Notes: a model not told the origin generated them from the sequence alone. Shown: positions 4,059 through 15,417, numbered from the stretch's first letter. The stretch: 64,000 nucleotides of DNA from an uncultured delta proteobacterium (GCA_963842085.1 CAWJET010000002.1:672001-736000); one strand, 5' to 3'. Program-made: numbers and translations.

Positions 4059-4134
4059 GGGCAGGTAGCTCAGTCGGTAGAGCAAAGGACTGAAAATCCT
4101 TGTGTCGAGTGTTCGATTCACTCCCTGCCCACCA
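4059..4134 (+). tRNA. tRNA-Phe (GAA)
   Basis: 76-nt cloverleaf: acceptor GGGCAGG/CCTGCCC, anticodon stem AAGGA/TCCTT with loop CTGAAAA, T arm GAGTG-TTCGATT-CACTC, encoded CCA. Confidence 0.97.
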
Positions 4135-4206
4135 AAGACCGCAACCGAAGCCGAGGTTTGCTCGCTCGGAACGGCATCAGACGAGCGTCGGCCCGGCGAA
4201 CGGCGG

Positions 4207-4659
4207 TTACCGGCGCGGGGCGCGCCAGACCTCGGGCTTCTTGCCGGTCGTCATTTCGGCCAGCGAGGTCAGTTCGACGCGATCAGCCGTTATCAGCATC
4301 AGGCCGAAGTCCTTCGATTCGGGACCGCCGGGCCAGAACTGCGCGAGGTCGTAGTCAAAGACCTTGCCGCTCCAGATTCGCTTCTTCTCCGCCACGTCTT
4401 CGACAAACTTGGCCTTGCCGGTGACGGTCAGGTGAATCATCTCGGGCCCGATTTGGTAGAAGAGCTCGACCCTGGGATTTTTGTCGATGTGACGTGCCTT
4501 GGCCGAACCGCGTCCGGTCGCGACCCACACGCGCTCACCCTCGAACGCCGGATGCACGACGCGGACCTTGGGCTGGGTTCCGTCGGCGGTCGCGAGATAT
4601 GCCCAGGTCGCCTTTGCGGCGGCCGCGTGAGCCTTGTCCCAGAATGTTGGATCGCTCAT
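4207..4659 (-). CDS. Pyridoxamine 5'-phosphate oxidase-like flavin split-barrel protein
   Basis: YLATADGTQPKVRVV..WVAT..SAK..IDKNPRVEL; GGAGG upstream of ATG 4659. Confidence 0.8.
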   Translation of the reverse strand: MSDPTFWDKAHAAAAKATWAYLATADGTQPKVRVVHPAFEGERVWVATGRGSAKARHIDKNPRVELFYQIGPEMIHLTVTGKAKFVEDVAEKKRIWSGKVFDYDLAQFWPGGPESKDFGLMLITADRVELTSLAEMTTGKKPEVWRAPRR

Positions 4660-4703
4660 CTGAATGCCTCCCGAACGTATTCCGTAACACGCCCGCGATT
4701 GGT

Positions 4704-4741
4704 TTGACACTGCGCGGCATCCCGAACTACGGTTAGAGTTC
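4704..4741 (+). promoter_or_regulatory. Putative sigma70 promoter of the tetR operon with an overlapping inverted repeat
   Basis: TTGACA (4704-4709), 18 nt, TACGGT (4728-4733); GAACT-N8-AGTTC at 4724-4741. Confidence 0.5.
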
Positions 4742-4757: not shown

Positions 4758-5426
4758 ATGGAACGCCACGCCCGACGCGCGCAAGTGTTGCGCCATGCCA
4801 AGCGCATCTTTGCCCGCAAGGGATATCACAGGACCAATGTCGCGGACATCATTGCCCGCGCCCGCATCGCGCGCGGCACCTTCTATCTTTATTTCCAGAA
4901 CAAGAAGGACCTGTTCGAGGAATTGCTCGAGCAGGTGGTCACCGAGCTGACGCAGAGGATTCAGCGGCTGCGCGTCGGACCGGGCCAGGACGACCCGGTC
5001 GATCAATTGCGCGCGAACCTGACGCGAGTGCTCAACTACGTGCTGGCTGAGCGCGAGCTGACCGACATCCTGCTGAACCATTCGACCGGATTCGATCACG
5101 AGCTCGACGACAAGATCCAGAACTTTTACGATCGGATCGCGGCCCTCATTAAACGCTCGCTCGATCTGGGAATCGAGATGAACCTGGTGCGCGCCGCGGA
5201 TACGCGCGCGGTGTCGTACGCGATCCTGGGCGGAATCAAGGAAGTGATCGGGATGCTCTCGCGCAGCAACGACGTGGAGATCTCGGCGCTGGTCGAGGAG
5301 ATACTGCAGTTCGGGCTGAGCGGCGTCGCGCGTCCCGAGTTGTTGAGATTCGTGCGCACGCAAGGCGAAGACGGGCGCGAGCCGCTTCCGGGCAACGGCT
5401 CTTTTTTTGGGCCCAAACTAGACTGA
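4758..5426 (+). CDS. TetR/AcrR family transcriptional regulator
   Basis: FARKGYHRTNVADIIARARIARGTFYLYFQNK helix-turn-helix. Confidence 0.93.
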   Translation: MERHARRAQVLRHAKRIFARKGYHRTNVADIIARARIARGTFYLYFQNKKDLFEELLEQVVTELTQRIQRLRVGPGQDDPVDQLRANLTRVLNYVLAERELTDILLNHSTGFDHELDDKIQNFYDRIAALIKRSLDLGIEMNLVRAADTRAVSYAILGGIKEVIGMLSRSNDVEISALVEEILQFGLSGVARPELLRFVRTQGEDGREPLPGNGSFFGPKLD

Positions 5427-5427
5427 C

Positions 5428-6240
5428 ATGTCAGTTTACGCGCATAAGAAACCGCCCAGGTCACACGCGCCCAGGACCGTCAAGCGCCGTGCCGCCTTTT
5501 ACGATCTGGACGGCACGCTGGTCGATCTGAACCTGGTGCATGCCGCGATTTTCACGCTCGCCAACGTCGGTGAATGGACCGGACGTGCTTCGTACCTGCT
5601 CGGATTCGCCGCGCGAATCCCGCGCTTGTACGTTGCCGAACAGCGCGACCGCCGACTGCTGAATACGGTGCTGTTCGAGGCGTTCAAAGGTATCTCGCGC
5701 GACCGGCTGTCTTCGCTGGGCGAGGAATATTGCGAGCGCATCCTCATAGGGCATCTGTTTCCGCGCGCGCTGGAATTGATCGCGGCGAATCGCGCGGCCG
5801 GAATCGAGCCGGTGCTGGTGACGGGTTCGCCGGACTTCATCGTGGCGCCCCTGGCGCGTCACCTGGGGATCGCCGACTTCGCCGCGAACCGATTTGTCTT
5901 CAGCCGCGGCCGCGCGACCGGCCGGCTGGCCGAACCGGTTATGGCGGGCGACGAGAAAGCGGTCTGGTGCGAGGACTACGCTGCCGCGCACGACATCGAC
6001 CTGGCGGATTGCTGGGCTTACGCCGACTCGCACTACGACACCGCGTTTTTGGCCGCGGCCGGGCATCCCGTGGCCGTCAACCCCGACCGCAGATTGCGCG
6101 CGGCCGCGCTCAGCCGGCAATGGCCGGTGCTCCACTTCGAGACGGCAGCGTCTTCGGAGCGGGCCTACGATTTCGACAACGACCTGGACCCCAACCACGA
6201 CGGCGAACGATCGACGCGAGGCTCGAATGGCGCGCCCTGA
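5428..6240 (+). CDS. HAD-IB (SerB-like) phosphatase
   Basis: Motif I FYDLDGT, motif II VTGS, motif III K, motif IV YADSHYD, PVAVNPD. Confidence 0.9.
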   Translation: MSVYAHKKPPRSHAPRTVKRRAAFYDLDGTLVDLNLVHAAIFTLANVGEWTGRASYLLGFAARIPRLYVAEQRDRRLLNTVLFEAFKGISRDRLSSLGEEYCERILIGHLFPRALELIAANRAAGIEPVLVTGSPDFIVAPLARHLGIADFAANRFVFSRGRATGRLAEPVMAGDEKAVWCEDYAAAHDIDLADCWAYADSHYDTAFLAAAGHPVAVNPDRRLRAAALSRQWPVLHFETAASSERAYDFDNDLDPNHDGERSTRGSNGAP

Positions 6241-7867
6241 AGCAAAGCTCAAGGAACTGAAAACTGCCGAGCTGCGGCACGAGGTCGGCGCGCGAAGCGA
6301 GCTGGTCGTCAAGGTGAATCGGCGCTCGGAGCGCCGCGTCATCCCGTACGGCGAGGAATTTCTGTTCGAGAAACTGCCGGTCTGCACGCGCGTGATCTAT
6401 CCGCCGCCGCCGCTCGATCCTCTCGCCGACCCTGACCAGGCGATTCGCTACGCGCTGTTGCATCCGGAGAACCAGGATCCGTTGTTCGCGCAGCTCAGTC
6501 CCAACATGCGCGTAACGATCGCGATCGACGACATCAGCCTGCCGCTGCCGCAGATGCGCCGGCCCGATATCCGCGAGCGGCTGTTGAACCAGGTGTTGCA
6601 GACGCTCGCCGATTACGGGGTTGACGACGTTCACCTGGTGATCGCGACGTCGCTGCATCGGCGGATGACCGAGGCGGAGATTCGCCGCGTCGTGGGCGAG
6701 CGCGCGTTCAAGCAGTACTGGCCGGACCGGCTGTACAACTTTGACGCGGAAAATCGCGCCGAGCTTTCGATGCTCGGCAAGACGGAGAATGGCGAAGAAG
6801 TGTGGCTGTCGCGGCGCGCGGCGGAGTCGGACCTGCTCATCTATTTGAACATCAACCTGGTGCCGATGGACGGCGGGCACAAGTCGGTCGCGGTCGGACT
6901 CGCGCCCTACCAGAGCCTGCGGCATCACCACAACGTCTCGACGTTGCGCGATTCGCATTCGTACATGGACCCGACACGGTCGGCGTTGCATCGCTCGTCG
7001 GACCGGATGGGCAAGCTGATTCACCAGTCGCTCAACATTTTTCAAGTCGAAACGGCGGTGAATACGCGGATGTACGGCGGGATGCTCGACTTCCTGCACA
7101 AGAACGAGGACCGCTTCACCGACTGGGATCGCACGCGTCTGAAAGGCTTTCAGTGGACGATGCGCAACATGTCCAATGAGATGCGGCGCACCGTGCTGCA
7201 CAACTACGCGGCCCCGTACGGAATGATCGGCGTGTGGGCGGGCGATACCGAGGCGGTGCATCGCAACGCGCTTGCACGCGTGTTCCAGCAATACGCGGTG
7301 CCGGTGAAGGGCCAGGCGGACATTCTAATTGTCGGCGTGCCGTACATCTGTCCATACAACGTGAACTCGATCATGAATCCTGTGCTCGTGCAGTGCACCG
7401 GGCTGGGCTACCTGTTCAACATGTATCGGAACAAGCCGCTGGTGCGCGAAGGCGGCACGATGATCGTCTGTCATCCGCTGCGCGACGAATTTCATCCCGA
7501 GCATCATCCGAGTTACATCGAGTTTTTCCATCGATGCCTGGCGGAGACGACCGATGCGGTTGAGCTCGAGAAAACTTTCGAGCGCGAGTTCGCGCGCAAC
7601 CCGACGTACATTCATATGTACCGCTACGGCAACGCGTACCACGGCGTGCATCCGTTCTACATGTGGTACTGGGGTGAGCCGGCGCGGCAGCACGTCGGGC
7701 GCGTGATCGCGGCGGGATGCGAAGAGCCGGACGTCGCGGCGCGCCTTGGATGGGAAGCGGCGGACACGCTCGACGAGGCGATCGCGATGGCGACGTCGGA
7801 GCTGGGGCGCTCGGCCTCCATAACCTACCTGCACCTGCCGCCGCTGGTGATCGCGGATGTCGAGTAG
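6227..7867 (+). CDS. Lactate racemase (LarA/DUF2088) fold protein
   Basis: [28 protein letters not shown]; ATG 6227 overlaps the end of the HAD gene. Confidence 0.8.
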
Positions 7868-10800
7868 CAACGGCAAACGCAACGGGGCCGCGGCGCGCGG
7901 CGGGTCGTCGATGCCGGCGCTCGAACAGGTGCTGCGCGGGCGTCGTATCCTGTTGACGGGCGCGACCGGATTTCTCGGCAAGGTGTTTCTCGCGCTCCTG
8001 CTGCGATGGCATCCTGAGATCGAGCGCGTGTATCTGCTGATTCGCGGCGATCGGCGCAGCAGCGTCGGCCGCTTTCGCCGCGAGATTCTCGACTCGCCGG
8101 TGTTTGCGCCCCTGCGCGAACATCTCGGCGATAAGTTCGATCGCTACATCGATGAAAAAATCGTCGTCGTTCCCGGCGACATCACCAACGACGGCCTGCT
8201 CGGCGAAGAAGCAAAGCCGTTCAAGCCCGGCAGCCTCGACGCGGTCGTGCATAGCGCGGGGCTGGTGAACTTCGAGGCATCGCTGGAAAAGGCGATCGAG
8301 GTCAACACGACGGGCGTCGCCAACGTGATCGAGTTCTGCCGCAAGCTCGGCGCCGCGATGATGCACGTATCGACCTGCTACGTCGCGGGCAGCGCCGACG
8401 GGCATCGCTACGAAGACGACATCCCCGACGACTGGTGCCCCAACGGGCGCAAGTCGTTCAGGCTGGAGCGGGAGATTCGCGACGCGTTGGCGGCTATCCA
8501 GCGCGTGCAGTCCGAGTCGCGCGATCAGTTGCGTCACGCGGAGTTTCGCGGCGACGAGGACGACGCCGGTAGCTCTCGCGAGTCGGCCGTCGAGCACCGG
8601 CGCAAGCAGTGGGTCGAGGAACGCCTCAAGTACGTCGGCCGGGTACGCGCGCAGAGTTGGGGATGGCCCAACACGTACAGCTATACCAAGAGTCTCGGCG
8701 AACAGTTGATGCTCGCGAATCGCGACACGCTCGACGTCACGGTCGTGCGTCCGGCGGTGATCGAAAGCGCGCTGCGCGATCCGTTCCCCGGCTGGAACCA
8801 GGGCGTCAACACCAGCGCGCCCCTGACTTATCTCGCCGGCCGCGGCTACCGATTTTATCCCGCCAAGGCGGAGTTGGTGCTCGACGTGATCCCGGTCGAT
8901 CTCGCGGCGCACGCGATGATTCCGATCCTCGCCGCGCTGCTATCGCGCAAGCACAAGCCCATCTACCAGCTTTGCACATCGGATCGGAATCCGCTGCCGA
9001 TGCGCCGGCTGGTCGAGCTAACCGCGCTCAGCAATCGCCGCGAGCATCGCAAGGACGGCGGCACGATGCGCTGGCTGGGGCCCCATCTGGAAGCCGTCGT
9101 CGTGTCGCAGAGCACTTACGACCTCGCGAGCAGCACCGTTCCGAAAATACTCAAGCAAGCGGCGGCGTTCGCGCGGAGCGTGGTGGGCGACGAGAATCGG
9201 CGAGCGAAAAACATTGAGAGCGCGATTGACAAGTTCAAGGAAAACACCGACCTCGCGCGCGAGTTGGTCGAGGTCTATCGTCCCTACATCCAGGAGCTCG
9301 TTTATACTTTTCACGCGAGCAACATTCGCGCGCTTTACGCGTCGCTCGAGCCGGTTGACGCCGAGCGCCATCCGTTTCGTCCCGATCTGATCGATTGGCG
9401 CGACTACTGGATCAACATTCATCTGCCGGGCCTGCGCCGCCATATTTTTCCGCAGCTCGATCTCCACGCCCGCGGCAGGCCCAAGTCGCTGCCCCGTCAT
9501 CGCACTCTCGTCGATATGCTCGATCGCGCCGCCGACCGCTACGGTTCCCGACCCGCGATGGTTGCGCGGCGGCCGTCCGGCGAGCAGACGCTGACCACCT
9601 ATCGCGAGCTGCGCGACCGGGTGCATCGGGCAGCTCTCCTGCTCGCGACGCGCGGAATCAAGCCCGGCGATCGCGTGCTTCTGATCGGCGACAACTCGCC
9701 CGACTGGGTGCTCGGCTATTTCGCGATCCTGTGCGCAGGCGCGATCGCCGTGCCGCTGGACCAGCTGATTTCCGCCGAGGAGCTGGCGCCGATCTGCAAG
9801 ATCGCCGAGCCGGCCGCGGCGCTGCGGTCAAGCGCAGTTCATAAGCGCCTCGGCTCCGCGCTTGGCGACGCTCATCCCAAGCTCATCGAGCTCGATCTCG
9901 CCGAGCTCGCGCGGCCGTTCATTCTGCGTGGCGATGCGAAGACGCCGCCGGCGCCGCCGGAGCGAAAAGCGCTGGCGTCGATCCTGTTCACCTCCGGCAG
10001 CACCGGCGCGCCCAAGGGCGTGATGCTGACGCACGGCAACTTCGCCGCTGAAGTGGCGATGTTGTCGCGCGTCTTTGTTCTCGGCGCCGACGATGTGGTG
10101 CTGTCGCTGCTGCCATTGCATCATGCATTCGAGTTCACCTGCGGGATGCTGTTGCCGCTCGCCAGCGGCGCCACCATCGTCTATCCGCTAGAGGTCGATG
10201 CGAAGACGCTCTCGCGCACGCTCGCTGACGTGCGCCCGACCGCGCTGATAGGAGTGCCCGCGGTGTGGGAGGCGGTCCATCGGCGCATCGTCGATCAAGT
10301 CGAGGCGCGCGGTCCCTTCTTTCACGCGGCCTTCGACAATCTGCGCGATCTGAATCGCCGTCTGGACGCGAAATCCGGCCTTAACTTCGGCGCTATAGTT
10401 TTCCGCCAGGTTCATTCCGGCTTGGGTGGACGCCTGCGGCTCGCCGTGAGCGGCGGTTCTGCCCTGCCCCATCGCGTCGCGGAGTTTTTCAATGACATCG
10501 GAATTCCGTTGCTCGAAGGTTACGGGTTGACCGAAGCGGCTCCCGTTTTATCCGTTGCGCGGCCTGACGAACCGCTGCAAGTCGGCGCGGTGGGACGGCC
10601 GCTGAACGGCGTCGAGCTCAAGCTGATGCCCGCAACTGGCTCGATCGGCGAGATAGTCGCGCACGGGCCGAACGTGATGGCAGGTTACTATCGCAACGAA
10701 GCCGCAACCGCCGAAGTGTTGATCGACGGGTGGCTTCACACGGGAGACCTCGGGCGCCTCGACGACGACGGCCGCCTGTACATCGTCGGGCGCGCCAAGG

Positions 10801-12236
10801 AAGTTATCGTCGATTCCGGCGGCAACAACATCTACATCGAAGAGCTCGAGGAAATTTACGGCCGTTCGCAGTACGTCAAGGAGATGGCGGTGGTCGGCTT
10901 GAAGGTCGGCCAGGGCGAGCAGGTCGCTGCGCTCGTGGTGCCCGCTTACTCGCGCGGCGAGAGCCGTCGCGCCGTTGAGGACCGGCTGCGCAGCGACTTC
11001 GACCAGGTCGCGCGCGACCTCAGCGCGCACAAACGAATCAGGATCCTGCGCTTCACCGACGCAGAACTGCCGCGCACGCGCACCCGCAAGATCAAACGCG
11101 CCGATGTTGCCGCAATGCTGCGGCGGATGCTCGACGTCAGCGCGCGCGAAGTCGTCGTTGATACCGCGAACCCCGAGGTCGAGACGTGGCTCGCAGAGGC
11201 GCTCGCGTCGGTCGCCACCGAGCCGGTCAACATCACGCCGGCGACGCGGCTGATCGAGGATCTCGGCCTCGACTCGCTGGCACTGGCTGAAATCGGCGAG
11301 CTGATCGGCGAACGTGCGTCCCGCGAGATCGCGCCGGAGGAGATCGCCGACTTGCGCACCGTCGCGGACCTCCAGCTTCTCGCCGCGCAACCCCTCAGCG
11401 TCAGCGGGCGGCATCGAATGCCCTCCTACGCGAAGTTCGCCGAACCTTACACTCCGCGCCTGCCGGCGCCGCTGAAGTGGCTCGGTCGCTTCGCGGTGCG
11501 CGGGGCGGAGCGCGCGATTTTCGACGGATGGCTGAAGCCGAAGATCCTCGGGCGCGGCAACGTCCCGGCCAATCGCAACTTCATCGTCGTCGCGAATCAT
11601 TCCAGTCATCTCGACTTCAGCCTGGTCGGCTACGCGCTCGGCGCGATCGGCGAAGACCTCCGCGTGCTCGCCGCCAAGGACTATTTTTTCAACACGCCGG
11701 CGCGGCGCTTTCTCGCGTCGAACTTCACTTCGCTGATGCCATTCGATCGGGAACGAGCGCAACTCGAATCGCTCGAAGACGCGCTCGCCGAATTAGCGCG
11801 GGGACGCAGTGTTTTGATGTTCCCCGAGGGCACGCGCTCGCCCGACGGCGAAATTCACGAGTTCAAGAGCGGCGCCGGATACCTGGCGCTGCGCAGCCGA
11901 TGCGACGTGCTGCCGGTCCTGATTCGCGGCACTCATGACGTGATGGGCAAGGGCAGCCTCGTCCCGCGGCGGCATCCGGTGGAAGTCCGTATAGGCCGCG
12001 CGATCGCTGCGGCCCGGCTGCACGAAGTGGCCGAAAGTTCAGAAGGCGCCGGCGCCTATCGCAAGATCGCAGACCTGATGCGCACGGCGGTCATCACGCT
12101 TTCCGGCTCGCCCCCGAAGTTACCGCTCACCTTCGACGCGACAACCGCGGCCTCAAACGGCGCCGCGCCGGTCAAGCACGCACACTCAGGGACCGCTCGC
12201 TCGCCCGACCTGCCTCGCGGCCACGCCAAGGCGTGA
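7857..12236 (+). CDS. ElbD-like multidomain enzyme: fatty acyl reductase + adenylation (acyl-CoA synthetase) + ACP + PlsC-type acyltransferase
   Basis: TGATGFLG and YSYTK (reductase); FTSGSTGAPKG, GYGLTE, HTGDLG, PRTRTRKIKR (adenylation); LGLDSL (ACP serine); NHSSHLD and FPEGTRS (acyltransferase). Confidence 0.9.
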   Translation: MSSSNGKRNGAAARGGSSMPALEQVLRGRRILLTGATGFLGKVFLALLLRWHPEIERVYLLIRGDRRSSVGRFRREILDSPVFAPLREHLGDKFDRYIDEKIVVVPGDITNDGLLGEEAKPFKPGSLDAVVHSAGLVNFEASLEKAIEVNTTGVANVIEFCRKLGAAMMHVSTCYVAGSADGHRYEDDIPDDWCPNGRKSFRLEREIRDALAAIQRVQSESRDQLRHAEFRGDEDDAGSSRESAVEHRRKQWVEERLKYVGRVRAQSWGWPNTYSYTKSLGEQLMLANRDTLDVTVVRPAVIESALRDPFPGWNQGVNTSAPLTYLAGRGYRFYPAKAELVLDVIPVDLAAHAMIPILAALLSRKHKPIYQLCTSDRNPLPMRRLVELTALSNRREHRKDGGTMRWLGPHLEAVVVSQSTYDLASSTVPKILKQAAAFARSVVGDENRRAKNIESAIDKFKENTDLARELVEVYRPYIQELVYTFHASNIRALYASLEPVDAERHPFRPDLIDWRDYWINIHLPGLRRHIFPQLDLHARGRPKSLPRHRTLVDMLDRAADRYGSRPAMVARRPSGEQTLTTYRELRDRVHRAALLLATRGIKPGDRVLLIGDNSPDWVLGYFAILCAGAIAVPLDQLISAEELAPICKIAEPAAALRSSAVHKRLGSALGDAHPKLIELDLAELARPFILRGDAKTPPAPPERKALASILFTSGSTGAPKGVMLTHGNFAAEVAMLSRVFVLGADDVVLSLLPLHHAFEFTCGMLLPLASGATIVYPLEVDAKTLSRTLADVRPTALIGVPAVWEAVHRRIVDQVEARGPFFHAAFDNLRDLNRRLDAKSGLNFGAIVFRQVHSGLGGRLRLAVSGGSALPHRVAEFFNDIGIPLLEGYGLTEAAPVLSVARPDEPLQVGAVGRPLNGVELKLMPATGSIGEIVAHGPNVMAGYYRNEAATAEVLIDGWLHTGDLGRLDDDGRLYIVGRAKEVIVDSGGNNIYIEELEEIYGRSQYVKEMAVVGLKVGQGEQVAALVVPAYSRGESRRAVEDRLRSDFDQVARDLSAHKRIRILRFTDAELPRTRTRKIKRADVAAMLRRMLDVSAREVVVDTANPEVETWLAEALASVATEPVNITPATRLIEDLGLDSLALAEIGELIGERASREIAPEEIADLRTVADLQLLAAQPLSVSGRHRMPSYAKFAEPYTPRLPAPLKWLGRFAVRGAERAIFDGWLKPKILGRGNVPANRNFIVVANHSSHLDFSLVGYALGAIGEDLRVLAAKDYFFNTPARRFLASNFTSLMPFDRERAQLESLEDALAELARGRSVLMFPEGTRSPDGEIHEFKSGAGYLALRSRCDVLPVLIRGTHDVMGKGSLVPRRHPVEVRIGRAIAAARLHEVAESSEGAGAYRKIADLMRTAVITLSGSPPKLPLTFDATTAASNGAAPVKHAHSGTARSPDLPRGHAKA

Positions 12237-12319
12237 TGCCAGCTTACGCCAACGCCGCTGCATCTCCCGCGTCAAGCTGATGCTGGAATACTTACCCGCC
12301 GGATGGTTACATTTGAGTC

Positions 12320-12856
12320 ATGGTTGATTGGTTCAGCAAACGCCCCGACCACACCCTGCGGCCGACTCGCAACGGCCGCCGCCCGTCGGTCAGCGTGATC
12401 TCAGACGAACTGCTGGTCGGCGAATATCCGAATGAGGCCGATATCGCGTGGCTGAAGGACACCTACGGCATCACCGCGGTGCACAATCTCCAGGACGACG
12501 ACGATCTGCGCATGAACGGGTTGGACGATCGCGGCCTCTGCGCGGAGTACACGGCCCACGGCATCGATTACGTGCGGACGCCGATCCAGGACGGCAGCGC
12601 GGACGCGATGGCCGCGCGGCTCGAAGCCGCACTGCATGACCTTCGCGACCTGGTCGGTTCGGGCGCCCGCGTCTATCTTCATTGCAACGCCGGGATGAAT
12701 CGGGCGCCCACGCTGGCGATTGCGTTCCTGCGTGCTTATCGGCAAATGTCACTCGAAGAAGCGATGATGCTCGTGAAAAAGCAGCGCGCATGCGGACCGT
12801 TCATGACGGTGCTCGAGGAGTACTTCGGGCCGCGCGACCACAAGCCGGAAAAATGA
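12320..12856 (+). CDS. Dual-specificity (CX5R) phosphatase
   Basis: VYLHCNAGMNRAPT P-loop; PIQD general-acid loop. Confidence 0.88.
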   Translation: MVDWFSKRPDHTLRPTRNGRRPSVSVISDELLVGEYPNEADIAWLKDTYGITAVHNLQDDDDLRMNGLDDRGLCAEYTAHGIDYVRTPIQDGSADAMAARLEAALHDLRDLVGSGARVYLHCNAGMNRAPTLAIAFLRAYRQMSLEEAMMLVKKQRACGPFMTVLEEYFGPRDHKPEK

Positions 12857-12857
12857 C

Positions 12858-13634
12858 TTGACCTCGTCAGGCGCAGCCGGAAGTCTACCGCGGGCGGTGC
12901 CGAGGCAGAAGTTTCTCACGGCCTGCGCGTGGGGCGTACATCTATATACCGCGCTCGGCGCGGCGCTCGGCCTGCTCGCGATCTTCTTCGCCTCGCGCGG
13001 CGACTTCCGCGCGTCATTCCTCGCGATGGGCGCGGCGACCATCATCGATTCCAGCGACGGTCCGCTCGCGCGCCGGCTGATGGTCAAGACCCGCGTGCCC
13101 AGCTTCGACGGCGCGCTGCTCGACAACATTGTCGACTACCTGACCTACACCGTGGCGCCCGTGTTCCTGATGCTGGAAGCGGGCCTAATCCCGGATTCGC
13201 GATGGGGCCTGGCGCTGGCGTGTTTCGTCATGCTCGCGAGCGTTTACGGATTCTGCCACACCGAAGCCAAAACCCCGGACCACTACTTCCTCGGATTCCC
13301 GAACTATTGGAACCTCGTCGCGTTTTATCTTTACTGTCTCGGCGCCGGCACCGTATTCAACGTTGCCGTACTGATGCTGCTGGGCGTGATGGTGTTCTTG
13401 CCGCTCAAATACATTTATCCAAATCGAACCGTCTCGCTCCGCCGGACCACGCTCACGCTTGGAATCATTTGGGGGTTTGTGACAGTCGCCTCGCTGTTGA
13501 TGCTGCCGACCGTGAATCCGATTATGTTGTGGGCCGGGCTCAGTTTCATCGCTTACTACTTCATTGCGTCGTTCGTGCTCCAGGCTCGCGCCGCGCTGAA
13601 GTCCAATCGCAGCCGTGCCGACCGGGATGCCTGA
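12858..13634 (+). CDS. pcs: Phosphatidylcholine synthase-like CDP-alcohol phosphatidyltransferase
   Basis: AWGVHLYTALG; DG-x2-AR-x12-G-x3-D-x3-D (Pcs-type spacing); KTPDHYFLGFP; many transmembrane segments. Confidence 0.8.
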   Translation: MTSSGAAGSLPRAVPRQKFLTACAWGVHLYTALGAALGLLAIFFASRGDFRASFLAMGAATIIDSSDGPLARRLMVKTRVPSFDGALLDNIVDYLTYTVAPVFLMLEAGLIPDSRWGLALACFVMLASVYGFCHTEAKTPDHYFLGFPNYWNLVAFYLYCLGAGTVFNVAVLMLLGVMVFLPLKYIYPNRTVSLRRTTLTLGIIWGFVTVASLLMLPTVNPIMLWAGLSFIAYYFIASFVLQARAALKSNRSRADRDA

Positions 13635-15417
13635 ATCCGCGTCGCATACCGCAACCGCCGCCTCCGAGTCATGGCTCGAGGTGATCGATTCCGATTCTCC
13701 CCTGCTCCTGATAGCGCCGCACGGCGGACGCGCTGAACCACGCACGCGCTCGATCCTCAATCCCAAGGTCAACGACCTCCACACGGCAGACATCACGCGC
13801 GGACTTGCGGCGCGGCTGGACGCGTCGGCGCTGATCAACGTCGCGATGGATCGCAATCGGCTCGACTGCAACCGTCTCTCCCAAATAATCGAGCGCGCGC
13901 CGTGGCTGCTCGAACTGATCGCAGAGCGCGTCGGCGCGATCGTCGCGCGTCACGGCCGCGTCACGGTGCTGCTCATCCACGGATGGAACATCATCGAGCC
14001 GCGCCTCGATTTCGGACTCGGACTGCGGCACTCGGGAGGCGAATTGCGGCCGCCCGGTTCCGCCTGCGTCTCGGCCAGCGACGATTTCATCAACGGTCCG
14101 CTCGCCGGACTCGCCGACCGCCTCAATCGGCATGGAATCAAACCAACCTACGGCATGCGTTACCCCGGCGGCGGTCTCCAGAACCTGTTGCAGGCATTCA
14201 CCGCGCGGCATCGGCACAGCCCCCACGCGCCGCTCAGATCGATTTCCGAGACCGCCATGAACGGTGTCGTCGATGCGGCCCAACTCGAACTGTCAGTTGC
14301 GCTGCGAATGCCCGGCGAGTTGCGCAATCGATGCGAGAACGCCATCGCCGAAGTATTCTCGGCCAACGGCGCTGATTCGCCCGCCGCGCGGGCGCCCCTG
14401 GTTGTGAATCGCGCGCCGCATCGCGCGGTCGCCAAATCCGAAATCGGCGCGGCCGCGACGGTCGCCGCGCCCGGACGCATCGGGATCGAATTTTACGATC
14501 CGGCGGCGCGATTCGGCGCGATGGCGAGCTTCGACGTCGGCGGTGCGGGCATGGGCGCGCGGATCATGATGCTGTTCGATCGCAATCACGCGGCGCTGTT
14601 TACCGCCGAAGGACGGCCCACACGTTCCGCAAGCGCCGTCACACACGGCTCGCTCTCGCTCCGGCGCGAGGGCAAATCGATCGTGCTCGCGTTCCGCGGA
14701 CCTGTTGTCATCGTACCCGACGCCACCGCCTATCTAAGCATCGAACGCGCTCTGGCTTCAGGCCGGCTCGACGGCGACACGGAAGTTAGTGTCAGTCTTG
14801 AAATTGATCGCGCCGGCAGTGAATTCGACTTCGACCGGATTCTTTCGCTGCCCGGCGCCGCGCTGGGGGTTCCGTCCTCGACCGCTGCATTCGGACGAAT
14901 TGGGGGACAAGTTCGCGTTGACGGTGCCGCACGGACGGTGAACGGACTTGCGCGCGCGGGAATGTCCTTCACCGGACTGGGGCCGCAGAAATTCACTGCG
15001 CGCCGGATGATTTGGGCGTGCTTCGAAGATCAAGAGGCGCCGCGCGCGCTGGAAGCCCGCTCGGTCGCGACCGACGATGCGCCGCCAAGTCGGAGTGCCA
15101 GGATTCTCGGCGCCGGCGGCTGGTCACCGTGCGAGCTGAGCGATCTAACGATCGAGACGTCGTCAATCGAGAAACCACCGCATCGCATTTCTGGATCGGT
15201 GACGCGTCCCGACGGGTCGTTATGCGAATTCGAGGGCAGCGTCGAATGCTTCATTCCGTTATCGCGTCCCAGGCCGGAGCAGTCGCGCATCTACACGTCA
15301 CTCGGATTCGCGAGCTTTCGCACGGGGAGTCATCGCGGGGCCGGGATGTTTGAATACTCGCGCATCGCCGATTCGGTGCCGGCCGCGGCTGATGACAACG
15401 ACGACGATTCCGATTGA
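13627..15417 (+). CDS. Hypothetical protein: N-terminal Zn-amidohydrolase-like domain plus beta-rich C-terminal domain
   Basis: LIAPHGG..ND..DCNR..LLIHG resembles the N-formylglutamate amidohydrolase / PghP fold; 8-nt overlap with pcs. Confidence 0.65.
   Translation: MPESASHTATAASESWLEVIDSDSPLLLIAPHGGRAEPRTRSILNPKVNDLHTADITRGLAARLDASALINVAMDRNRLDCNRLSQIIERAPWLLELIAERVGAIVARHGRVTVLLIHGWNIIEPRLDFGLGLRHSGGELRPPGSACVSASDDFINGPLAGLADRLNRHGIKPTYGMRYPGGGLQNLLQAFTARHRHSPHAPLRSISETAMNGVVDAAQLELSVALRMPGELRNRCENAIAEVFSANGADSPAARAPLVVNRAPHRAVAKSEIGAAATVAAPGRIGIEFYDPAARFGAMASFDVGGAGMGARIMMLFDRNHAALFTAEGRPTRSASAVTHGSLSLRREGKSIVLAFRGPVVIVPDATAYLSIERALASGRLDGDTEVSVSLEIDRAGSEFDFDRILSLPGAALGVPSSTAAFGRIGGQVRVDGAARTVNGLARAGMSFTGLGPQKFTARRMIWACFEDQEAPRALEARSVATDDAPPSRSARILGAGGWSPCELSDLTIETSSIEKPPHRISGSVTRPDGSLCEFEGSVECFIPLSRPRPEQSRIYTSLGFASFRTGSHRGAGMFEYSRIADSVPAAADDNDDDSD

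Follow-up and report, generated by a model that had tools for sequence, protein, structure and literature searches.

An ElbD-type gene set and a phosphatidylcholine synthase-like gene set, predicted to be separable, in a probable membrane-lipid locus of Candidatus Binatus

In Myxococcus xanthus, ether lipids are linked to the elb operon, in which elbA and elbE encode NAD-dependent epimerases/dehydratases, elbB encodes a HAD-like phosphohydrolase, and elbD encodes a fusion of a fatty-acyl reductase (FAR)-like domain, an acyl-CoA synthetase (ACS), an acyl carrier protein (ACP) and a domain resembling acylglycerol-phosphate acyltransferase (AGPAT) (PMC9131029, PMC13012113). According to the available text of the first of these reports, the function of elbC is not known, disruption of elbD strongly reduces alkyl and vinyl ether lipids, loss of elbE lowers ether lipids, and elbA is not needed; the activities reported there for ElbD in vitro are those of the ACS and ACP, and those of the reductase and acyltransferase were not demonstrated (PMC9131029). 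Homologues of ElbD are reported from numerous phyla, and an organism that has one need not make ether lipids, as stated in the accessible part of a further report (PMC11868695). The main text of a preprint describes elb-like cluster families of sponge symbionts in Poribacteria and Acidobacteriota, which have a core of elbD and elbB and variable neighbours: CDP-alcohol phosphatidyltransferases are adjacent in clades 1 and 2 and a phosphatase in clade 3, and certain families retain only elbD and elbB and are still read, unproven, as ether-lipid clusters (bioRxiv 10.64898/2026.06.23.733905). Phosphatidylcholine synthase (Pcs) is described as combining choline with CDP-diacylglycerol in a single step (PMC7867332). 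Here we describe a cluster of seven genes, including one for an ElbD-like enzyme and one for a Pcs-like enzyme, at positions 4758-15417 on the + strand of a 64,000-nt stretch of bacterial DNA (GCA_963842085.1, CAWJET010000002.1:672001-736000), which is called the window below; all cluster coordinates are positions within it.

We read the locus as a membrane-lipid neighbourhood specific to the family Binataceae, in which two separable modules stand behind one TetR-type, weakly FadR-like regulator and ether-linked phosphatidylcholine (PC) would be a by-product. The probability that we assign to this reading is about 0.55. Module A would consist of the HAD-IB phosphatase, the LarA homologue and the ElbD-like enzyme, as the counterpart of the myxobacterial elbB-elbC-elbD core. 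Module B would consist of the dual-specificity-type phosphatase, the Pcs-like transferase and a 600-residue protein, and would be built around the one Pcs-type enzyme of the cell. The genes and the one spacer of the cluster are as follows.

4758..5426, + strand: TetR-family regulator, the first gene of the cluster (Pfam TetR_N 58 bits, TetR_C_24 30 bits)
5428..6240, + strand: HAD-IB phosphatase, ElbB-like (Pfam HAD 108 bits; TIGR01490 118.8 bits, cut-off 98.3)
6227..7867, + strand, start inferred: LarA homologue (LarAH14/15/16) in the position of ElbC (NF052592 833 bits, cut-off 740; Lar_N 123 bits)
7857..12236, + strand: ElbD-like four-domain enzyme of 1459 residues (Pfam domains)
12237..12319, no strand: spacer of 83 bp between the ElbD-like and phosphatase genes; in relatives the site of a Zn-phospholipase-C-like gene or of insertions
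12320..12856, + strand: cysteine-based phosphatase of the dual-specificity type, 178 residues (DSPc 61.4 bits, cut-off 33.5)
12858..13634, + strand: Pcs-like CDP-alcohol phosphatidyltransferase, 258 residues (CDP-OH_P_transf 32.7 bits, cut-off 22)
13615..15417, + strand: two-domain protein of 600 residues, without a Pfam or NCBIfam match

Gene calls annotated with Pfam and NCBIfam place all seven genes in the same orientation and close together, as an earlier note on this DNA had said. Gaps of a single nucleotide separate tetR from the HAD gene and the phosphatase gene from that of the Pcs-like enzyme. The LarA homologue and ElbD-like genes, and likewise those of the Pcs-like and 600-residue proteins, overlap by 11-20 nt (20 nt in the second case), and the overlap of 14 nt between the HAD and LarA homologue genes is valid only with the inferred start at 6227. 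The single larger gap in the cluster is the 83-bp spacer. A scan for promoters and terminators gave nothing above the shuffled expectation, and no promoter-like or terminator-like site was called in 12237-12319. The two modules are probably co-transcribed here, because the gap between them is only 83 bp and no terminator was called in it. The seven-gene arrangement is not due to chance, since relatives with as little as about 47% identity in the last gene still have the same order. The names on close homologues place the host in Candidatus Binatus (family Binataceae, class Binatia), which agrees with the non-myxobacterial lineage proposed in the earlier note.

The separation into two modules is drawn mainly from the distribution of the genes. 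The class was sampled with 151 Binatia genomes from 19 families, including that of the window (G000), and an ElbD was counted as full-length at E<=1e-100. The Pcs-like gene has one match each in 148 of the 151 genomes and is found in 19/19 families. Full-length ElbD is present in 15 of 17 Binataceae genomes plus the window's own, and in none of the 133 genomes from the 18 other families. An earlier draw contained ElbD in 22/24 genomes of the same genus and in 0/16 genomes from ten other families, and a draw from the phylum contained it at full length in three of 301 genomes, all of them Binataceae. Homologues of the phosphatase occur in 81 of the 151 Binatia genomes (10/19 families) and those of the 600-residue protein in 114 (14/19 families); nine of the 19 families have Pcs without any phosphatase homologue. 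Outside Binataceae, neither ElbD nor the phosphatase nor the 600-residue protein is encoded within 1.5 kb of Pcs in any of 12 loci from five families, and none of the other cluster genes lies within 8 kb of the 600-residue homologue in any of 20 loci from 13 families. A metagenome-assembled genome labelled Acidiferrales was discarded as a sample from another phylum, as it belongs to the phylum of the window.

The cluster is well kept within Binataceae, where 80 loci were reached through the gene of the 600-residue protein, using a profile built from a 15-sequence alignment. Pcs lies just 5' of this gene in 78 of the 80 loci, and the other two end at a contig edge. The phosphatase is present in all 72 loci in which it could be assessed, the end of ElbD lies at most 1.3 kb from the phosphatase in 61/68, and tetR, HAD, LarA homologue and ElbD are complete in 51 of the 57 loci that extend at least 8.3 kb upstream. 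Since the loci are kin, these counts go back to a single arrangement in an ancestor; Mrp and DksA, which flank the cluster, are conserved to the same degree as the cluster genes. Among the 61 loci in which ElbD adjoins the phosphatase, a PF00882 gene stands between the two in 29, and the gap is shorter than 300 nt in 31. The PF00882 product resembles a secreted Zn-dependent phospholipase C (PLC)/S1-P1 nuclease (examples are L052:7810-8655, L070:7795-8655, L078:7666-8544 and L085:7519-8502). No such gene was found in the window or in the whole of its own genome.

The modules have come apart in several members of the family. Two distinct Binatus genomes, G041 (which is one and the same assembly as G047) and G042, lack both a full-length ElbD and a Lar_N gene and keep the 3' module. 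In locus L056 of G042, and in L048, which is known as a locus only, its genome not being among those searched, a truncated tetR (residues 1-196/199) abuts the PLC-like gene, phosphatase, Pcs and 600-residue gene. In locus L026 of G041, the truncated tetR is followed by a 1-kb gap without a PLC match and then by phosphatase, Pcs and the 600-residue gene. In these loci the stretch from HAD to ElbD has been deleted. In G015 and G043, 7-9 kb of unrelated genes separate the PLC-like gene from the phosphatase; the insertion in G015, of 7 kb, holds a lipid-transport-like set of PqiA, MlaD and ABC_trans_aux genes on the opposite strand (L177:3965-7351). In G017 no phosphatase gene comes closer than 8 kb to ElbD, and in G099 the elb module and the Pcs module are on different contigs. 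A Pcs-only state is seen in one unpublished Binatus genome (G018, 94% complete; L132): Pcs is kept there beside Mrp and DksA, and no ElbD, phosphatase, 600-residue gene, Lar_N, LarB or LarC was found in that incomplete assembly. Judged from these genomes, neither module needs the other, because the later history of Binataceae shows each split from the other or kept without it.

The earlier note had proposed that the three 3' genes extend the elb pathway. We do not retain this proposal, because Pcs is single-copy across the class, ElbD was seen within the class in Binataceae alone, and the modules are split or deleted separately, with the trio persisting where HAD, LarA homologue and ElbD are gone. 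The same note had looked to other genomes for a lack of linkage between the 3' genes and elbD as the sign of error; linkage is lacking outside Binataceae and in part inside the family, and is kept in the Binataceae majority.

The ElbD-like enzyme has the four parts of its namesake, namely a fatty-acyl reductase, an adenylation domain, an ACP and an AGPAT-type acyltransferase. The corresponding Pfam matches are NAD_binding_4 (residues 33-354), AMP-binding (555-945), AMP-binding_C (996-1078), PP-binding (1111-1172) and Acyltransferase (1232-1356), and the motifs GATGFLG, YSYTK, SGSTGAPK, LGLDSL, HSSHLD and FPEG are intact. In the ESM Atlas, a Myxococcota-labelled cluster is the third-nearest to the protein (score 0.94, to be taken as a lead only). 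Relatives of the adenylation-ACP-acyltransferase part that lack the FAR domain were seen in nine of the 301 phylum genomes (L183-L191), in frames of 860-1033 residues with 32-42% identity to residues ~540-1455. The ElbC protein of M. xanthus is presumably a DUF2088/LarA protein. The four-domain order, and the HAD and LarA-fold genes ahead of it, had both been recognised in the earlier note; domain order and motifs bear out the first, and the second agrees in position with elbB and elbC ahead of elbD in M. xanthus, in each case by the published description (PMC9131029, PMC13012113). An NAD-dependent epimerase of the elbA/elbE type had been noted as missing, and none was found in the operon, its flanks or elsewhere in the window, the remaining genome being outside this search; nor did the rest of the window contain additional lipid genes at E<=1e-6.

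The reading frame of the LarA homologue is open from 5894. Among the start candidates reviewed, the ATG at 6227 is the likely start, because the family model begins to match at residue 138 of the long frame. The closest solved relatives are 9Q2U and 9Q3J (E 2.5e-28), and the alignment to 9Q2U keeps the residues that the preprint on these structures numbers His115, Lys195 and His211; the nickel-binding histidine, the cofactor lysine and the first catalytic histidine are thereby aligned. The available text of that preprint presents both as LarA-like enzymes of groups 14-16, with a single catalytic histidine, no known substrate and gene contexts of sugar metabolism (bioRxiv 2025.08.19.671153), and a LarAH14 from Frankia is described as inactive on every hydroxy acid tested (PMC7583248). 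The Lar_N gene of this operon is the sole one in its genome, which also encodes LarC (208 bits), LarE (325 bits) and LarB (292 bits), all above their cut-offs. These three are scattered on another contig (C1:2175423-2175917, C1:1038955-1039731 and C1:1388453-1389079, respectively). That the cell would keep LarB, LarC and LarE solely for the ElbC-like enzyme is weakened by G041/G047 and G042, which keep LarB and LarC without a Lar_N gene; their persistence suggests another user of the nickel-pincer cofactor.

The product of tetR has its best NCBIfam match to a FadR-type fatty-acid regulator, at 64.8 bits and far under the cut-off of 200. The gene is kept ahead of the HAD gene in Binataceae relatives, and a search for an operator found no inverted repeat upstream of it. 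An open reading frame of 201 residues without a Pfam match lies just 5' of tetR (4102-4707, + strand); its position is kept, at 42-71% identity, in many Binataceae loci.

The Pcs-like protein is matched over its full length by five NCBIfam Pcs models (E from 4e-55 to 9e-38), compared with 1.6e-9 for the PssA model. All five scores are under the curated cut-offs: NF045886 187 of 440 bits, NF045884 148 of 350, NF045888 142 of 400, NF045885 135 of 400 and NF045887 130 of 300. These scores lower the certainty of the assignment and still allow membership, because the models are lineage-specific. The CDP-alcohol motif DGPLAR-x12-G-x3-D-x3-D (of the type DG-x2-AR) is intact at residues 67-93, and its 12-residue spacer is presumably that of the Pcs type. 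Several hydrophobic segments are predicted. A search of solved structures gave PssA as the best match at E 0.28; no Pcs structure has been solved. Every gene of the cluster is single-copy in its genome, which is rated 100% complete, and that of the Pcs-like enzyme is the sole one of its type. The apparently long reading frames that surround Pcs in other families are not fusions: PrpD and histidine-kinase genes, read in different frames, account for the upstream portions.

The phosphatase has the DSPc fold and the HCX5R loop HCNAGMNR at residue 121, and no hydrophobic segment is predicted in it. Among proteins of solved structure it is closest to LSF2 (E 3.5e-18, residues 24-161) and SEX4, which are glucan phosphatases of plants, and the lipid phosphatase PTPMT1 is matched at E 5.8e-4 only. 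In other Binatia families, its homologues neighbour genes for citrate synthase, a HemN-like protein, LexA, a Clp ATPase, a glycosyltransferase and others, which are housekeeping genes and give no functional hint.

The 600-residue protein belongs to a family of 298 representative clusters (HMMER, E<=0.001, 1.84 billion proteins). In the ESM Atlas its matches were its own Binatota clusters only, with DUF7064 on 19-27% of members. An AlphaFold2 model calculated with 38 relatives in the alignment reached a predicted local distance difference test (pLDDT) of 88.2 and a predicted template-modelling score (pTM) of 0.90. Foldseek comparison with the PDB matched the N-terminal part to N-formylglutamate amidohydrolase (FGase; 2Q7S), Atu2144 (2ODF) and poly-gamma-glutamate hydrolases (PghP-like; 3A9L, 5ONJ), and the C-terminal part to AttH (2ICH), the cyclases Fsa2, Phm7 and CghA, kievitone hydratase and 25-phosphosteroid lyase, all of which bind hydrophobic ligands. 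The model predicts that the protein is composed of an N-terminal FGase/PghP-like hydrolase domain and a C-terminal AttH/CrtC-like double beta-barrel. H36, D54, H122 and E225 are among the invariant residues, and from the fold we read the protein as a putative soluble, lipid-directed metal hydrolase. Complex prediction with the Pcs-like protein gave a score of 0.00, without folded controls and hence without a verdict. Outside Binataceae, homologues of the protein (L107-L126) adjoin genes for enoyl-CoA hydratase, an MFS transporter, MaoC dehydratase or acyl-CoA dehydrogenase. The names that the earlier note had given to the 3' genes largely hold: the full-length model matches, all below cut-off, make Pcs a reasonable name, the loop and the DSPc score confirm a CX5R phosphatase, and the hydrolase of the last gene is there as a domain, although the description was incomplete, as it passed over the second one.

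The cluster lies between housekeeping genes on both sides. Upstream are PrmA, an RsmE-like protein and GshB, and downstream, on the opposite strand, are an Mrp/NUBPL-type ATPase, DksA, a MiaB-like enzyme, LolA, FtsK and RNase J.

Based on the domains and their described relatives, a mechanism of lipid synthesis in two modules can be proposed. The adenylation domain of the ElbD-like enzyme may charge the ACP of the same protein with a long-chain fatty acid, by analogy with the in vitro step of M. xanthus ElbD. Reduction to an aldehyde or alcohol would follow at the N-terminal FAR-type domain, and the AGPAT-type domain would add an acyl chain to a glycerol-phosphate backbone. The HAD phosphatase and the nickel-pincer-type LarA homologue would act at further, unplaced steps of module A, the expected product of which is 1-O-alkyl-2-acyl-glycerol phosphate. 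In module B, the Pcs-like enzyme most likely makes PC from choline and CDP-diradylglycerol for the whole membrane, as its family suggests. Our best guess for the phosphatase and the 600-residue protein is a role in head-group supply or lipid remodelling. The two modules came together in the ancestor of Binataceae, along with the PLC-like gene, behind one tetR gene. An ether-linked PC is a plausible product, which would arise if Elb products were CDP-activated and used by Pcs, and would then be a by-product of juxtaposition instead of a dedicated output.

Several observations weigh against this two-module reading. The phosphatase, Pcs and 600-residue genes, which are scattered elsewhere, form a coupled unit exactly in the family that bears elbBCD, and the whole set has stayed together across at least nine genera. 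That genes scattered in other families are gathered here does hint at a common function or regulation, but it is a single event. As the 83-bp spacer has no called terminator, the seven genes may form one transcript; a search for RNA runs for 5418-15417 gave none among the 20 runs listed, all of which are soil metagenome DNA. An ordinary choline-fed Pcs is not fully explained, because neither a BCCT (PF02028) nor an OpuAC (PF04069) protein for choline uptake was matched in the complete genome.

One alternative is that the seven genes form one dedicated pathway, which would make a fatty alcohol, link it to glycerol as an ether and add phosphocholine, with the phosphatase and the 600-residue protein as pathway-specific enzymes and lipids of the plasmanyl-PC or platelet-activating factor (PAF) type as the output. 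The junctions of the genes, including the 14-nt overlap that goes with the 6227 start and the 83-bp gap without a called terminator, are consistent with it, as are the complete order in 51 of 57 assessable Binataceae loci, the assembly of the trio only in the elbBCD-bearing family, and the same regulator gene that remains with the 3' module after deletion of elbBCD. However, Pcs is present once in nearly every Binatia genome and ElbD in none of the 133 non-Binataceae genomes; G041/G047 and G042 keep the trio without ElbD; and in G015, G017, G043 and G099 insertions or different contigs keep the two modules apart. Moreover, Pcs takes a CDP-activated lipid, so that no phosphatase would be required between an ether lipid and PC, and the gene order has been inherited vertically in a single family, which makes its many loci one event. 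We consider a dedicated pathway unlikely.

A more specific form of this pathway makes the LarA homologue, as the ElbC-type protein, the ether-forming catalyst, with an acquired elbBCD core joined under a fatty-acid-sensing TetR protein to the cysteine-based phosphatase, Pcs and a lipid-binding Zn-hydrolase in a dedicated ether-PC route. The LarA homologue would transiently oxidise the sn-2 hydroxyl of acyl-glycerol phosphate, and the fatty alcohol from ElbD would take the place of the acyl group. If this were true, one redox-neutral step of the LarA homologue would replace eukaryotic AGPS plus a reductase; we regard the proposal as decidedly doubtful.

It is also quite unlikely that the ElbD-like module does not serve ether lipids and that it instead recycles fatty acids or reduces them to aldehyde or alcohol, for wax-type esters or re-acylation of lysolipids, in a general regulon of lipid homeostasis controlled by a TetR protein that senses acyl-CoA. 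The restriction of the activities reported for M. xanthus ElbD in vitro to ACS and ACP would fit this explanation, as would the lack in the operon and the window of elbE, the loss of which lowers M. xanthus ether lipids (PMC9131029), and the FAR-less relatives in nine phylum genomes. In Pontiella strains that carry elbD homologues, ether lipids were not seen, according to the accessible part of the report (PMC11868695). On the other side, the order elbB-elbC-elbD and every catalytic motif are kept, disruption of elbD in M. xanthus strongly cuts both kinds of ether lipid, and sponge-symbiont clusters reduced to elbD and elbB are nonetheless taken for putative ether-lipid clusters.

In the last alternative, the Pcs-like enzyme would not use external free choline, and the phosphatase and the 600-residue hydrolase would supply or finish a head group, for example by freeing an alcohol from a phosphorylated or N-acylated precursor or by dephosphorylating a phosphatidyl-X-phosphate as in the PgsA/Pgp or phosphatidylinositol phosphate (PIP) synthase/phosphatase pairs, so that the lipid would perhaps not be PC; the scores of the Pcs-like protein under every NCBIfam cut-off (the best being 187 of 440 bits), the start of its gene one base past the phosphatase stop, its 20-nt overlap with the next gene and the non-protein substrates of the glucan phosphatases LSF2, SEX4 and laforin, which are the phosphatase's nearest solved relatives, are in line with it. 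It keeps some weight because the source of choline is unexplained without a BCCT or OpuAC match, and it is nonetheless very unlikely, given five full-length Pcs model matches against a far poorer one to PssA, the motif spacer of presumed Pcs type, the nine families with Pcs and no phosphatase homologue, the distance between the two in other families, and the uninformative housekeeping contexts of the phosphatase elsewhere.

Under the two-module reading, the locus predicts alkyl-ether glycerolipids in one family of Binatia and PC in nearly all of the class. Few bacteria have either type of lipid, and both matter for lipid biomarkers of soil; Binatia are abundant, uncultured soil bacteria. The compact gene set may also serve to study how the ether bond is formed in the elb route and what the nickel-pincer LarA homologue contributes to it. 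A specialist may find the locus useful yet unsurprising, because its combination with Pcs is lineage-specific and separable and related variants are in print. A full-text search, with most subscription journals outside its coverage, found no literature joining Binatota with ether lipids. The earlier note had put the combination forward as undescribed; this stands in so far as the main-text section of the 2026 preprint names neither Pcs or phosphatidylcholine nor Binatota, and fails in so far as the same text has elb-like clusters with CDP-alcohol phosphatidyltransferases and a phosphatase (bioRxiv 10.64898/2026.06.23.733905).

By its gene content, the locus is best described as a cluster of the known elbBCD type in a lineage new to it, next to a Pcs operon specific to that lineage. 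Its closest counterpart is elbABCDE of M. xanthus (MXAN_1531-1527, with ElbD as MXAN_1528), with which it shares, by the published description, a HAD-type phosphatase followed by a gene in the elbC position and a FAR-ACS-ACP-AGPAT enzyme, all co-oriented. It differs in having no epimerases of the elbA/elbE type, in the leading TetR gene, in the trio of phosphatase, Pcs and 600-residue protein behind, and in its Binataceae host. With the sponge-symbiont clusters, as the preprint text describes them, it shares the core of elbD and elbB and, in some clades, a neighbouring transferase or phosphatase, whereas the transferase in the window is of the Pcs type and is a housekeeping gene across the class. 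Compared with the bacterial Pcs enzymes of the Sinorhizobium, Legionella, Pseudomonas and Borrelia types, the protein in the window is of the same CDP-alcohol transferase class, with several membrane segments and full-length model matches, but it stays under each curated cut-off and is translationally coupled to a cysteine-based phosphatase and a two-domain hydrolase. The LarA homologue passes the same family model as the nickel-pincer enzymes of groups 14-16, with cofactor and catalytic residues aligned and LarB, LarC and LarE in the genome; it stands in a lipid operon, whereas the solved members come from contexts of sugar metabolism. The eukaryotic FAR1-GNPAT-AGPS route, as outlined in the available text of PMC9131029, has in common with the locus a FAR-like reductase, an AGPAT/GNPAT-like acyltransferase and, as the predicted product, a choline-headed ether glycerophospholipid. 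In the eukaryotic plasmanyl-choline and PAF route, alkylacylglycerol receives its head group from CDP-choline, whereas here a CDP-activated lipid would receive it from free choline.

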